In this document: positions 3,824 to 56,880 of the stretch, one piece after another | How the letters are laid out: each line of letters begins with the position of its first letter | How positions within the stretch are numbered: position 1 is the stretch's first letter | DNA from: Eledone cirrhosa | Lineage: Eukaryota | Direction: 5' to 3' | DNA length: 64,000 nt | NCBI GenBank assembly: GCA_964016885.1 | Contig: OZ024741.1 | Location: forward strand, 117,304,001 to 117,368,000 | Notes under the pieces: model-generated | The model's input: the letters and a program-made list of their open reading frames with translations, nothing else | What the model was told of the DNA's origin: nothing | Databases searched by the model: none | Translations under genes and position numbers: made by a program

Positions 3824-5079
3824 ACATATATATATATGTATATATATAAAGTGGCGGACTGGCCAGGTTGCGCAATAGCAAGTGAGCCCCAGGGGGCCCA
3901 CGGTAGCATTGCAAGAACCCACCGTAGCATTGCAGGGCCCACAGTAGTATTTTAGGGACCAATGCTTTGCTTTCAAAAAATACCTGAAATCTAAGAAAAA
4001 GAACAATTTAAAAAAAATAAATAAATAGAACAATTAAGCAAAGCATTTGGTCAACCAATTCCCCAGGGAATTACTAGAAACCAAAATATACGATAGTGCA
4101 AATAGCTGGAATGAGTGAATGTACATTCTATTAAATCTAAAGCTTAGTGTATTCATTCATGCATGCAAACATACATATATAGACACACACACACAAGCAT
4201 ATATATATATATATATATATATATATATATATATATATATATATATATATATATATATAATGCCAATCGTTGTAAGTTTGAATCTAACTGACATATAAAT
4301 AGGAATAAAGTAAGCCCAAATCACATTAGATTCAAATATCACAGAGAGAAATAAAGAAAGAAAGAGAGAGAGAGAGGGAGAGAGAAACATGGCTTACAGG
4401 TTAAAATGTAGTCTAGATAGATGAGAAACAAAATGAGGATGTAGTTTATGGAACACCCAAATGATTTAGAAGTCAACCTTAAGCTGGAGCAATACCATTA
4501 AGAAAGACATGAACGACACCACATCATTTTGTTTTGAAAATTTTGAAAGTAGGTTTATAAGTATGAATTTTCACAAGATTTTCGTAGTTGCCTCTGGGGC
4601 CTAGCGGTAGGTGCTAGAGACAGTGGAGAGCCTGGCCTTCGGTTCTATTCAGGTCGTGAGATACATGTAACCTTTTTTCATTTTTTATTTTACAACTTAT
4701 AGAAAAAAAACTGAAAAGGTTTACTGCTTCTGACCAGGATCGAACTTCAGACCACGATCTCCAACGTTTATGATTCCTCCAAATACGACACCGAGACAGC
4801 TACAAAAGTATACTGAAAATTGATAATTATAAACCTACTTTCCAAATCAAAATTGAAAAGATGTGGTGTCGTTCATGGCTTTCCTAGTGCTGTTAGCAAT
4901 ATTTAGAGTCGACTTCTGGTCATTATTGAAAGTCCTTCATCAACACACACACACACACATATATATATATATATCTGTATATAGTGGTAGAACACTGGAA
5001 GGTAATATCCGTAGTAGTAGAGCACTCAGTCCATGGGACGAGTTAGGTAGAAGTGGTTATACAACAGTTAGTTCACCAT

Positions 5080-5120
5080 ACCGAAAACAATTGTTTCACC
5101 TTAGCGACTCCTCAGCTCGT
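5080..5120 (-). ncRNA. type I hammerhead-like motif (degenerate stems)
   Basis: Minus strand: acgag CTGAGGA gtcgctaaggt GAAA caattg TT ttcggt. Confidence 0.55.
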
Positions 5121-5437
5121 AATGCACATGGTTATACGGGACAGGAAGGACAACCGTACGAACGCGCATGCGCAGAAACGATCACTTCACACAGGCAATA
5201 CTAAATTGCGTGCGAGAGGTGTAAGGGAGATAACTGCGAAAGTCCGAAAGTTTCTAGTTGATAAGAAAATTAGGATGTTGTTGTAATTCAATCCGGAGCT
5301 TTGTAGTTATAGAAGAGGTGTTTCCAGACGTGTGGACAACGTATGAAGAATTCATTTTTCGTGTTTAGGCAATCACTATTGCGTAATCTCCTTAGAATAT
5401 TTATTCATCCTTCCTGTTCCGTATAACCATGTCCATT

Positions 5438-5478
5438 ACGAGCTGAGGATCCGCTAAGGTGAAACAATTGTTATCGGT
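5438..5478 (+). ncRNA. type I hammerhead-like motif (degenerate stems)
   Basis: acgag CTGAGGA tccgctaaggt GAAA caattg TT atcggt; palindromic stem III CAATTG. Confidence 0.55.
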
Positions 5479-5514
5479 ATGGTGAACTAACTGTTGTGTA
5501 ACTACTTCTATATA

Positions 5515-6125
5515 TCTGTATATATATAAAATTAAGTATGTGTGTATTACCTATAGGGACCTACATCTTACGACCGATTTTCATGAAACTTTACAGGCTC
5601 ATAGATTAGTCATCGGGGAGTGTTTTCCATATATCAGCGTATCGTTTTTTTTTTTATTCCGGGGTCATCCTGCAGATAAAAATCGATAGGAGGTCACCTT
5701 TTTTAGGTATCGAAAATAAGATTTTTGGCTCTAGCTCCCACATTTTGCCACCGATTTCGTTCAAATTTTAAAGCAAAATAGAATTTATCATTGCACATCC
5801 TGTAAATCCTGTACTGGCTTTATATTTTGCATTTGTTGTTCAGGGACGGCGTGGCAGACGCTTAAATATTCAAAAATACAACTTTTAGACTTAAATTTCC
5901 ACTTTTTCGGCTCTAGCTCCCACATTAATCAACCTACTTTGTTCAAATTTTGCACTACGCTAGATCTGATTATTTTACGTCTTAAAGTGGCTTTACATTT
6001 TGGATCTTTTGTTCAGAAACGGCGTGGCAGCCGCTTAAATATTCGAAAATACCACCTTTTCGCTCAAATTTCCGCCTTTTCGGCTCTAGCTCGCACATTT
6101 TTCAACCGATTTTGTTCAAATTCGA
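5515..6125 (+). mobile_element. possible non-autonomous Helitron-like element with internal ~180-bp repeats
   Basis: Starts TCTGTATATATATAAAA, like the 5' end of the Helitron at 19355-20268; three degenerate copies of TTTCGGCTCTAGCTCCCACATT..CCGATTT.GTTCAAATTT; no clear 3' CTAG end. Confidence 0.4.
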
Positions 6126-54184: not shown

Positions 54185-54554
54185 ATTTGATGTTATTCCA
54201 AATTGAAGGATAAGTGTTTCAAACTTTGTTTTATCATGAGTTAAAGGTCTATAGATTTTTCCATGGATTTTACTAAATTCTGTGGATGAATTTGTATCCT
54301 GATTCTCTTTTGAGATGAGTTTGAGTTATTTTTCCTAAATCTTTCGTTAACTACTTTTCCCATCTTGACGTTATAGTCGCATATATGTTATAGAATGCCG
54401 TTAGCTTCTTGCTAAAACAATCTCTATACGTCTCATTTATATATATATATATATATTTGCGTGTGTATGCGTGTGTATATATTATGCGTATATATATATA
54501 TATATATGGATATATATAGATATGTATATACATACACATATATCCACTCGAGCC

Positions 54555-55199
54555 CTATATTCTTTGAAAGTCTTCTCCAGCTGAGATTTTCCTGCACCTT
54601 CCTTCGAGCATGACATGAACTTGTCTAGACATGCTTACTTTTCCCTTAGAAGGCTTTCCACTAGTGGTTCATTTGCAGTAAGCCAGCCCTGATGTTTTTT
54701 CTGCATAACCCAAAGTCGTGGCAGCTGCCTCATAAGGTTGTTTGCTGAAAGACAGACATGCATCATCACTGTTAGCAACTTCAATTTGCTTAACTGCTTC
54801 TTGAAATTTCTTTCGTTTTTCTGGGCAGGTGAATTGTGAAACGTTTTTACGTCTCTGCACCCTGACATCACCATGCCTCATCTTCTTCCGCACACGAACA
54901 GTTTCTTTTAGGAACCGGTAGTCTGTCTAACATCCTGCGTCTCTCAAGCAACAGATAATCTGGCATCCCGCTAATCGTTACGTCTTACAGTGACATAATC
55001 AAAAATATGCCAATGTACTTGTTCTTCTGTCAGAACCATGCGTTTCTTATGACACGATTAAATTCCTGGCACACCTGTAACAGGAGAAGTCCGTTTCCAT
55101 TGCATTTTCCAATTCCATGACGTCTTATACTGCTCCCTGTAGTAAAGTCACACCCAACACGAGCATTCAAATCACCTAACACTATAAGTTTGTCATCTC
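54555..55199 (-). pseudogene. RTE-clade LINE APE endonuclease/linker fragment (inverted segment)
   Basis: Minus strand DDKLIVLGDLNARVG...RHGIGKCNGNGLLLL..C.EF; downstream decayed linker. Confidence 0.85.
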
Positions 55200-55202
55200 T
55201 AT

Positions 55203-56215
55203 GTGTGTGACAACCACCGTGGTATCACTCTACTATCAGTTATTGGTAAAATCCTTACCAGGACCCTTGTTAATCGTCTGCTAATGTACATTGCACTCAA
55301 CATTCTGCCGGAATCTCAGTGTGGTTTCCGTCTATCGGGGCACTACAGATATGATCTTCACGGCATGGTAGATGCAGAAGTGTAAGGAGAAAGAGTTTGA
55401 TTTGTACAATTGCTTTATTGATCTCACGAAAGCCTTTGACACAGTCTTTACAGGGTTTATACGTTCATTGCAGGATGACATGAGAGCATGGTCTGTGTCA
55501 ATTGTGAGACAGGTGATGCTTGCATATATATATATGTTATCGAGCTACAGGAAGGCTTTTTAACATCCGACGATTCCTCGTTACATCAAAAACTTATATC
55601 ACACTGGTACGCGATCTTCTTTATGCAGACAACTGTGATCTTGTTAGCCACACAGAAGATGACCTGATGGGTTGCTTCTCGGCAGCATGTGATGAATTTG
55701 GGCTGACAATCAGCCTGAAAAAGACAGTCGTGATGCACCAGCTTGGAAAGCCATATATTCCTCCATCTATATCTGTCAAAGTGAAAATATTGATGGTTGT
55801 GGATAAGTTTGTTTACCTGGGTAGAACTCTTCCCAGCACCAGCACCCTTGATGAAGAAGTAAGATACCGGCTGTCTAAAGCTTCCGATGCTTTTGGTAAG
55901 CTGGAAAAGCGCCTGTGATCAGAGTCAGATATCAGTGTGCGCACGAAAGTCGAAGTGTATCAGACATGTGTGCTTACAGTGCTGCTCTATGGATGTGAGA
56001 CATATCCAGCGTCTCGAACGTTTCCACCAACAATGCTCGCGCTCCATCCACAAAATCTGATGGAGGCCTCATACACCAGACACTGATGTGCTGCTGCTGG
56101 CCTGTATGCCAAGCATCGAGAGCATGCTCATGAAACAGCACCTCCGGTGGACAGGTCATACAGTAAGTTCTGTATGGTGAATTGTTGCAAGGCAAACGCT
56201 TATAGTGCAAACCAC
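55203..56215 (+). pseudogene. RTE-clade (BovB-like) LINE reverse transcriptase fragment
   Basis: CDNHRGITLLSVIGKILTR; LPESQCGFR; FIDLTKAFDTV; DLLYADNC; FGLTISLKKT; VDKFVYLG; KAS.AFGKL; disrupted. Confidence 0.93.
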
Positions 56216-56395
56216 ACATATGAATGTATTAGCAATGCGAAATTATCGTACACACAATTTTTTCAAAGTTTGTATTACTTCATTATCTAAGCTTTCATAG
56301 ACCACCAACACTTACAATGACCCCTGACATGCACAAATCAGCATATCGTTTCCACTTGAGGATGTTGCTTAATGAAGTTAGAGGCCATCAATGGT

Positions 56396-56880
56396 TGGCC
56401 GGGTGTACCGAAAACGATAAATGGAAAAAATGAAATTTCATTTCTCACTCTTAGTATGGCTGGTACTTAAATATAAGTATGTATACGTACATACATATAT
56501 GTATACATACGTACAGTAGTATATACATACGGCCGACTAACTCACTCGATATGAAAATTACGCTGCTCAGCCGTTAATATGCATAAGGAAAGTATATAAT
56601 TTCAAACGTTCAATCGACTGACAGGAAGGTATACGGTGCTGATGACAGCTAATAAGCTAGAAACTAGTTCATCGTTCCTTTGTCAGTGTTGAACAAAAGG
56701 GCAACGATGGTTGCCGAACACTGTACATCTTAATTCGGGGTATTTGTTTACAAACAAACAGCATTATAATAAATGTTCGGTAAACCCATACGTACATATA
56801 TATATGTGTGTGCATGTATGTATGTATATACATACAACTGTACGTCTGTATACATATATGTATGTACGTATACACACTTA
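56396..56880. mobile_element. second copy of the ~427-nt retrozyme-like family with inverted 5' part
   Basis: 56396-56520 is inverted; 56530-56880 is colinear with 25650-25730 followed by 25305-25572; ends in (TA)n. Confidence 0.85.
56633..56675 (+). ncRNA. type I minimal hammerhead motif
   Basis: acggtg CTGATGA c-agct-aata-agct-a GAAA ctag TT catcgt. Confidence 0.8.

Follow-up and report, generated by a model that had tools for sequence, protein, structure and literature searches.

The closest described relatives of the hammerhead-bearing elements that we analyze here, in a 64,000-nt stretch of DNA from the octopod Eledone cirrhosa (the window; assembly GCA_964016885.1, contig OZ024741.1, positions 117,304,001 to 117,368,000), are Penelope-like elements (PLEs) of the Hydra clade. 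In line with an octopod host, a molluscan hemocyanin is encoded in the genome, and its best single-domain match, to the octopus protein chain 1js8_A (203 bits), ranks above those to the squid chain 4yd9_C (172 bits) and the snail chain 1lnl_A (96 bits). One cephalopod family of the Hydra clade, Hydra-1_Obim of Octopus bimaculoides, is recorded with (TA)n targets and a hammerhead (PMC8557442, Files S1 and S2), and the same source describes the one-sided tail of PLE insertions and lists the protein motifs RW(K/R), DKT, CxCX5C, CxxC, and CxH as diagnostic of the clade (section 11). Minimal PLE hammerheads with a short palindromic helix III and an extra base before helix II, in many families per genome, have also been described (PMC4209133). 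Metazoan non-long-terminal-repeat (non-LTR) retrozymes are non-coding, self-pairing units with one type I hammerhead that form partial or full tandems (PMC7229834; 10.64898/2026.07.22.740005). They have been argued to be PLE derivatives or parasites in 35 species, none of them a mollusc (10.64898/2026.07.22.740005); the mollusc named in PMC7229834 is the mussel. In Poseidon PAc, a PLE of Anolis carolinensis, two reverse transcriptase (RT) start sites bound the tail, the main template is unprocessed RNA, and both strands of an AT-rich target are cut and extended in vitro by a protein predicted to be a dimer, with hammerhead cleavage dispensable (PMC11167929).

An original prediction, made from the letters of the window, had described about eight sequence-unrelated, non-coding elements with hammerhead motifs and interpreted them as many independent retrozyme-like families mobilized by a Penelope RT. 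We find that the eight elements are most probably Penelope-type insertions in (TA)n tracts, four being truncated ends of protein-coding Hydra elements and four being hammerhead units without an open reading frame (ORF) that PLEs likely mobilize. The coding elements resemble the Hydra clade of PMC8557442 in their protein motifs, in a hammerhead near the 3' end, in (TA)n targets, in inverted truncated arms, and in a tail on one end. They differ from that source, which lists a single cephalopod Hydra family, in comprising many families, with about a dozen endonuclease types by eye, in a 3.55-kb unit with a 1.1-kb 3' untranslated region (UTR), in tails of 26 to 102 nt rather than 30 to 40 nt, and in U3-A8 hammerhead cores.

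Results

Hammerhead motifs mark eight repeat families

A strict type I descriptor (CUGANGA, stem II, GAAA, stem III, UH, and a stem I of at least 4 pairs) detected 10 hammerheads in the window, on the plus strand at 13769, 25332, 30591, 53480, 54109, and 56639 and on the minus strand at 28026, 25850, 25159, and 5115. Block-wise dinucleotide shuffling of the window yielded 0.02 motifs per shuffle, with 293 of 300 shuffles containing none and 7 containing one. Motif frequency was thus far above the shuffled controls against which the original prediction had asked to be checked, and its claim of hammerhead motifs in about eight elements held, all eight proving to be repeat families with 1,135 to 2,573 first-look candidates each in the 3.0-Gb genome. 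Since the CUGANGA 7-mer by itself was scarcely enriched (25 occurrences, compared to a shuffled mean of 17 and maximum of 28), the signal resides in the stems. The proposed Rfam search did not recover the motifs: no match in the window reached the gathering score, and the 150 listed of 354 E-value matches contained microsatellite noise and no hammerhead.

We refer to the families as A (elements at 25.3k and 56.4k), B (53.4k), C (27.8k and 31.8k), D (5.0k), E (13.7k), F (30.5k), G (30.9k), and H (25.8k). For each, 40 candidates were scored and 30 were fetched; the fetched loci are the closest copies, so that their uniformity reflects the source element rather than selection. The families show the type I core CUGANGA/GAAA/UH with three stems and an open stem I, with a U3-A8 core in G. 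Several window motifs fail the strict descriptor: +5443, in the short arm of D, has a changed base beside the cut; -31976, in the second insertion of C, has a changed G12; +25759, in A, is cut off; and the G element has UUGAUAA in place of CUGANGA, a substitution that, itself or as a one-base variant, is common to the whole family (30 loci aligned). The palindromic stem III ascribed to most elements is present in most families, the exceptions being E, with a real two-strand stem and a CTAG loop, and B, with a 7-bp stem.

Four families are ends of coding Hydra elements

The window also contains a PLE copy that had been overlooked, an internally deleted member (20616..21173) of a young autonomous Hydra family, comprising a short arm (20671-20616), an RT fragment (20663-21013), and a long arm (21038-21173) with a tail hairpin (21105-21130). 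The RT fragment has 38,608 first-look candidates in the genome, and many of its relatives have open frames of 784 to 795 codons. In 14 fetched copies the 3.55-kb unit has a hammerhead after the 1.1-kb 3' UTR and a single ORF with RT followed by a C-terminal GIY-YIG domain, including RWR, DKT, YRDD, CxCX5C, CxxC, and CxH. This motif set matches the diagnostics of PMC8557442, and we therefore assign the family to the Hydra clade, although Pfam recognized neither the PLE proteins nor the ORF. Judged by its reading frames, this young autonomous Hydra family is intact.

Families D, E, F, and H proved to be connected to similar proteins. The D insertion consists of a long arm on the minus strand (4977..5406) that is the 3' end of a coding Hydra PLE and ends in (TA)n, with the endonuclease C-terminus at ∼5404-5290, hammerhead C3 at 5115, a predicted cut after 5086, and a tail hairpin at 5043-5022, and of a head-to-head short arm on the plus strand (5408..5510) with the hammerhead at 5443. 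The non-coding character ascribed to all elements fails for this copy, which codes for the C-terminal 38 residues of its PLE endonuclease, and is retained for A, B, C, and G, which have no ORF. In ∼20 D loci the endonuclease end lies ∼200 nt before the hammerhead. The F insertion (30482..30790) has a short arm (30545-30482) and a long arm (30545-30790; hammerhead +30591, predicted cut after 30645, tail hairpin 30696-30722), and in two independent loci UTRs of 1,015 and 1,044 nt without a TA tract separate the endonuclease from the hammerhead. The H fragment (25768..25885, minus strand; hammerhead 25850, predicted cut after 25804) has lost its 3' end at the join with A. A targeted search linked H to an ORF in 4 of 8 fetched loci, three of them collinear over 1.4 kb, ruling out a parentless or LINE-derived (long interspersed element) origin.

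The E insertion (13620..13825) is a near-perfect palindrome with a long arm of mutated core (13767-13620) and a short arm (13758-13825; hammerhead +13769, predicted cut after 13807). Longer E copies have CCAAT and TATA-like boxes directly upstream of stem I, and at locus L372 an endonuclease end, a microsatellite-rich UTR, these boxes, and the hammerhead are collinear; the same layout, broken by nested insertions, occurs at L374. We also considered that E might be a fixed palindrome moving as a unit and rejected this: among loci that had been selected without E, single arms and copies with promoter-like sequence upstream are frequent.

Only linker or C-terminal Hydra motifs were recovered from the parents of these four families, the full set being found in the young family, and a hammerhead near the 3' end and insertion in (TA)n were common to the Hydra families. 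From these ORF links we conclude that D, E, F, and H derive from autonomous, protein-coding PLEs of the Hydra clade, of which they are truncated 3' ends. This makes it very improbable that all eight families are independent retrozymes, small circular RNAs parasitizing the Penelope RT. Short copies do predominate among E, F, and H matches, and the 5' limit of E and H copies falls preferentially right after the promoter-like boxes, so that solo ends may act as non-autonomous masters. Extension upstream into endonuclease-coding sequence nevertheless contradicts such an origin for these four, and unit-spaced tandems were not seen, with same-strand hammerhead pairs in 0 of 29 D, 0 of 30 F, 0 of 28 H, and 1 of 23 E loci, the latter at 940 nt. 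The proposed retrozyme-like class is retained for A, B, C, and G.

Two other observations concern coding PLEs. At L369:8200-8330 (oriented) and at L373, the 3' end of a Hydra family has a hammerhead-like fold with CAGAAGA replacing CUGANGA, present in three arms. The endonuclease fragment at L382:1-1080 departs from Hydra in having CX4CxxC ahead of its GIY-YIG domain, and a Neptune- or Naiad-type PLE may thus also be present.

Four families are ORF-less tandem units

Family A has a unit of ∼420 nt. Its first insertion (24859..25767) comprises a minus arm (25302-24859, hammerhead 25159) and a plus arm (25303-25767, hammerhead 25332) whose second unit is cut off at the join with H; an older one (56397..56890) comprises an inverted piece (56529-56397) and a forward arm with the hammerhead at 56639 and a U-U cut site. 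The very young family B (∼99.6% identity) is represented by 1.7 copies of a 629-nt unit on the plus strand (53389..54447), with hammerheads at 53480 and 54109 and a tail hairpin at 53818-53841, ending at a fixed site in (TA)n. Contigs of two runs of unspecified kind, aligned to 52.7-55.2k, gave neither an empty site nor a junction that could be read, which is no evidence either way. Family C, with units of ∼320 to 340 nt, is old (∼79%); at 27810..28375 a partially tandem minus arm (28223-27810, hammerhead 28026) is followed by a short inverted piece to ∼28375, and the second insertion (31761..32237), which contains the -31976 core, has an inverted piece at 32111-32237. The 319-nt unit of G (30787..31162) has a short arm (30977-30787) with the variant U3-A8 hammerhead (U3 at 30965) and a long arm (30982-31162).

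In all four families each tail leads directly into the beginning of the following unit, giving wrap-around arrays of constant period (∼420, 629, ∼320 to 340, and 319 nt for A, B, C, and G) at many dispersed sites. The units have a GC content of 34 to 39%, a longest ATG frame of 44 to 60 codons, strong self-pairing (circular-fold z versus shuffles of -8.9 for A, -4.6 for B, -6.6 for G, and -4.3 for C), and one type I hammerhead. Two complete same-strand hammerheads were present in 10 of 29 A, 7 of 18 B, 2 of 28 G, and 1 of 30 C loci, the last at odd spacing, so that consecutive units with complete hammerheads are found in A, B, and G and only weakly in C. By these features A, B, C, and G are likely non-LTR retrozyme-like units moved by PLE proteins. 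They share the non-coding, self-pairing, tandem organization with the retrozymes of PMC7229834 and 10.64898/2026.07.22.740005 and differ from those treated there in a mostly minimal palindromic stem III and a visible PLE two-end footprint.

Could these four instead be ends of coding PLEs, like the others, with tandems arising by DNA-level duplication of solo ends rather than from mobile RNAs? Four of the eight families did prove to be ends of coding elements, searches of the best 40 copies miss parents, and two complete hammerheads are rare in G and C. We nevertheless consider this explanation distinctly unlikely, given the constant-period wrap-around at dispersed sites, the short ATG frames, and the structure of B, which is nearly identical across chromosomes, starts at variable 5' positions, and always stops at the same 3' site. 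No endonuclease end was collinear with A, B, C, or G in 1.9 Mb, a weak negative, since H needed a targeted search.

Candidate parents were rejected in several loci: at L198, G is an insertion into the UTR of another element, and at L364, L365, and L367, A and B lie beside ORF pieces with no collinear link. As a separate observation, an E-family element has, nested within its TA-rich UTR (L374:3798-6453), a six-unit array of a 466-nt relative of A together with a copy of B.

Insertions pair one long and one short end

Counting the autonomous family, eight of nine families end at two fixed sites downstream of the predicted cut. The short and long ends lie, respectively, 226 and 276 nt from the cut in A, 123 and 165 in C, 38 and 108 in D, ∼18 and 108 in E, 52 and 145 in F, 142 and 168 in G, 66 and 168 in H, and 20 and 103 in the autonomous family. 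Among head-to-head pairs with both ends on-site, 144 of 159 joined one long and one short end. When off-site ends were retained under a second pairing rule, the counts were 134 long-short, 17 like-ended, and 34 off-site pairs (n = 185; 134 of 151 when only on-site ends are counted), and, for loci not chosen with the family in question, 46, 10, and 8, respectively (n = 64). In 116 of 131 cases the two arms of a pair resembled one another more than they resembled other copies.

Within the 144 pairs, the arm reaching further 5' was the short-end arm in 52 and the long-end arm in 44; both were equal in 46, and 2 ran off the reference. Since either arm may extend further, neither was copied from the other, and snap-back copying of the first cDNA is ruled out as a general source of the inverted arm. 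Only 4 of 613 5' ends lay within 3 nt of the predicted cut, a count that very short post-cut copies would escape; templates were therefore mostly uncut or re-ligated.

A TA followed 401 of 536 ends, compared to an 11% background. The Penelope-type anatomy and (TA)n preference that had been proposed are thereby borne out, including the fold-back inversions and partial tandems, the inverted 5'-truncated arms, and the tail on one end. The association with (TA)n or (CA)n tracts holds for TA; at the (CA)n tract of the 27.8k element, the ends still abut TA.

Fold-backs in TA tracts, and above all the near-perfect E palindrome, might also bring to mind miniature inverted-repeat DNA transposons targeting TA. 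We regard this as scarcely conceivable here: arms terminate at two different fixed sites with variable inner junctions, and copies often consist of one arm or a partial tandem. Extension of arms into RT and endonuclease sequence, together with the asymmetric ends, contradicts such an origin.

A tail hairpin follows the short end in six of nine families

In B, D, E, F, G, H, and the autonomous family, the motif GAGYRC occurs 10 to 37 nt past the short end (shuffle probability of 0.007 to 0.034 each). In six of the nine families an RCTC located 0 to 10 nt past the short end pairs with it (0.0001 to 0.004 each). GAGYRC recurs in 11 of 25 hammerhead clusters, which are partly the same families, compared to 3 for its reverse complement. 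The record preceding Hydra-1_Obim in the supplement of PMC8557442 ends with a paired variant, GCTC...GAGCAC.

Hammerheads are abundant and variable

Applied to a blind sample of 79 regions of 10 kb each (789,400 bases), the descriptor detected 61 motifs, compared to a shuffled mean of 0.65. This corresponds to 77 motifs per Mb (bootstrap, 52 to 105), about half the density of the window, and extrapolates to ∼230,000 (155,000 to 315,000) intact motifs genome-wide. The blind motifs form 21 clusters (Chao1, 30); stem III is perfectly palindromic in 38 of 61 and nearly so in 13 of 61, without the descriptor requiring it, and 59 of 61 have a TA tract no more than 300 nt downstream, compared to 25% of random positions. 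Published counts are >6,000 in coral, ∼5,000 in mussel, and up to 120,000 in axolotl (PMC7229834); PMC4209133, whose hammerheads share the traits described above, quotes ∼4,000 and 9,000 per genome. The descriptors behind these counts differ from ours, and no record is claimed.

Do the hammerheads function, or are they mostly inactive passengers in insertions of the anatomy described, with arrays produced by read-through of linear RNA without cleavage or circles? The latter is somewhat unlikely in our judgment, with a real chance of being right. The lack of a 5'-end pile-up at the predicted cut agrees with it, as do the poor cleavage of minimal PLE hammerheads (PMC4209133), the cleavage of only 1 of 9 Xenopus dimers (10.64898/2026.07.22.740005), and the dispensability of cleavage for PAc in vitro.

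Two patterns may point to function. The core contains a C3-G8 pair, and U3 is paired with A8 in both G and the young autonomous family, which we read as compensation. In the blind regions the U3-A8 combination occurred 9 times (shuffled, 3.85) and the single changes 3 times and once (shuffled, 1.35 and 0.85). In C, across subfamilies of related sequences, 93.8% of stem cells were paired with 23 double changes, a level reached by 0 of 500 shuffles; when pairs with a double change were counted, 204 of 500 shuffles were as high. The young families are too uniform for a covariation signal. Hammerhead function would thus be backed only indirectly, by the C covariation with the limits given and by U3-A8 pairing.

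Other repeats in and around the system

Further degenerate or partial remnants of hammerhead families, matched to motifs of other loci, lie at 19136-19175, 23398-23461, 26381-26493, 37574-37646, 38796-38932, and 56994-57055. At L372:7000-7800, a 275-nt tandem unit carries a tRNA-Ser-like gene (called by ARAGORN), an inverted arm, and TA flanks, with no hammerhead called; it is possibly a tRNA-headed PLE parasite. An old fold-back at 4496-4889 of the window (71% identity) has tRNA-like boxes by eye; ARAGORN called no tRNA in the window.

A very abundant ∼190-nt repeat resembling a short interspersed element has >10 copies in the window, among them 25920-26219, 29226-29418, 37864-38052, 50605-50812, 52846-53042, and 58499-58691. 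Strand-skewed minisatellites occupy 43602-50498 and 59171-62507 (a 25-nt unit × 276 and a 13-nt unit × 257), and a 27-nt array lies at 7.3-9.2k. Other retrotransposon protein fragments, recognized by eye at 18418-18978, 35664-36050, and 55517-55918, include restriction-like endonuclease and RT pieces, with one weak RVT_1 match.

Discussion

We propose that the Hydra protein, perhaps as a dimer, would bind the hairpin in the RNA tail and cut both strands of a TA tract. Two cDNAs would then be primed, one per DNA end, from the short and the long site on either side of the hairpin. Each would proceed 5'-ward through an uncut or re-ligated hammerhead until it halts, either at a variable position or where the RNA begins, and the two would be joined head to head. 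An RNA that begins directly upstream of stem I, copied up to its start by both cDNAs, would yield the near-perfect palindromes of E. Since A, B, C, and G were copied past one unit, their template was likely a multimer or circle, and hammerhead cleavage would release single units from multimers.

More specifically, the RCTC...GAGYRC hairpin between two RT start sites may be a cis-signal of Hydra retrotransposition. A protein dimer bound to it would use both ends of a cut TA tract as primers, starting one cDNA to either side of the hairpin, and the one-sided PLE tail would thereby be explained. Hairpin-bearing hammerhead circles would hijack the enzyme, and together these elements would account for ∼200,000 to 300,000 hammerheads in one octopod genome. 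We put this forward tentatively, as an idea that could go either way, with the balance slightly against it.

The proposal agrees with PAc (PMC11167929) in having a tail bracketed by two RT start sites, an AT-rich target, and cutting and extension of both strands; it differs in clade and in the joining of a long to a short end in the present insertions.

Several points weigh against our interpretation. In vitro, PAc showed no start-site difference between strands (PMC11167929). Family B has a single fixed 3' end, 269 nt from the cut, and neither inverted pairs nor a long end in the sample, and C has the weakest TA association (15 of 36 ends). Arm similarity could also result from gene conversion. 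The tail hairpin was spotted after the fact in the same sequences; GAGYRC was not found past the short end of A or C, and G retains only the 3' half, with no RCTC. Finally, as H seemed parentless until the targeted search, A, B, C, or G may likewise have unsampled coding parents.

The kind of system described here is already known; our additions are its scale, the pairing counts, and the shared tail signal. A 2026 repeat annotation of Octopus vulgaris lists Penelope families in a main text without the word ribozyme (PMC13282606), and in the openly accessible literature we found nothing on cephalopod retrozymes, pairing counts, or the tail hairpin.

PLE integration is the least understood route of eukaryotic retrotransposition, and the link between retrozymes and PLEs has so far rested on co-occurrence and homology. 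The rule that one long end is joined to one short end likely marks how the PLE enzyme begins copying. With an intact young Hydra family, young ORF-less units, and thousands of insertions, the E. cirrhosa genome provides substrates for studying two-ended priming, the candidate cis-signal, and the role of the hammerhead.

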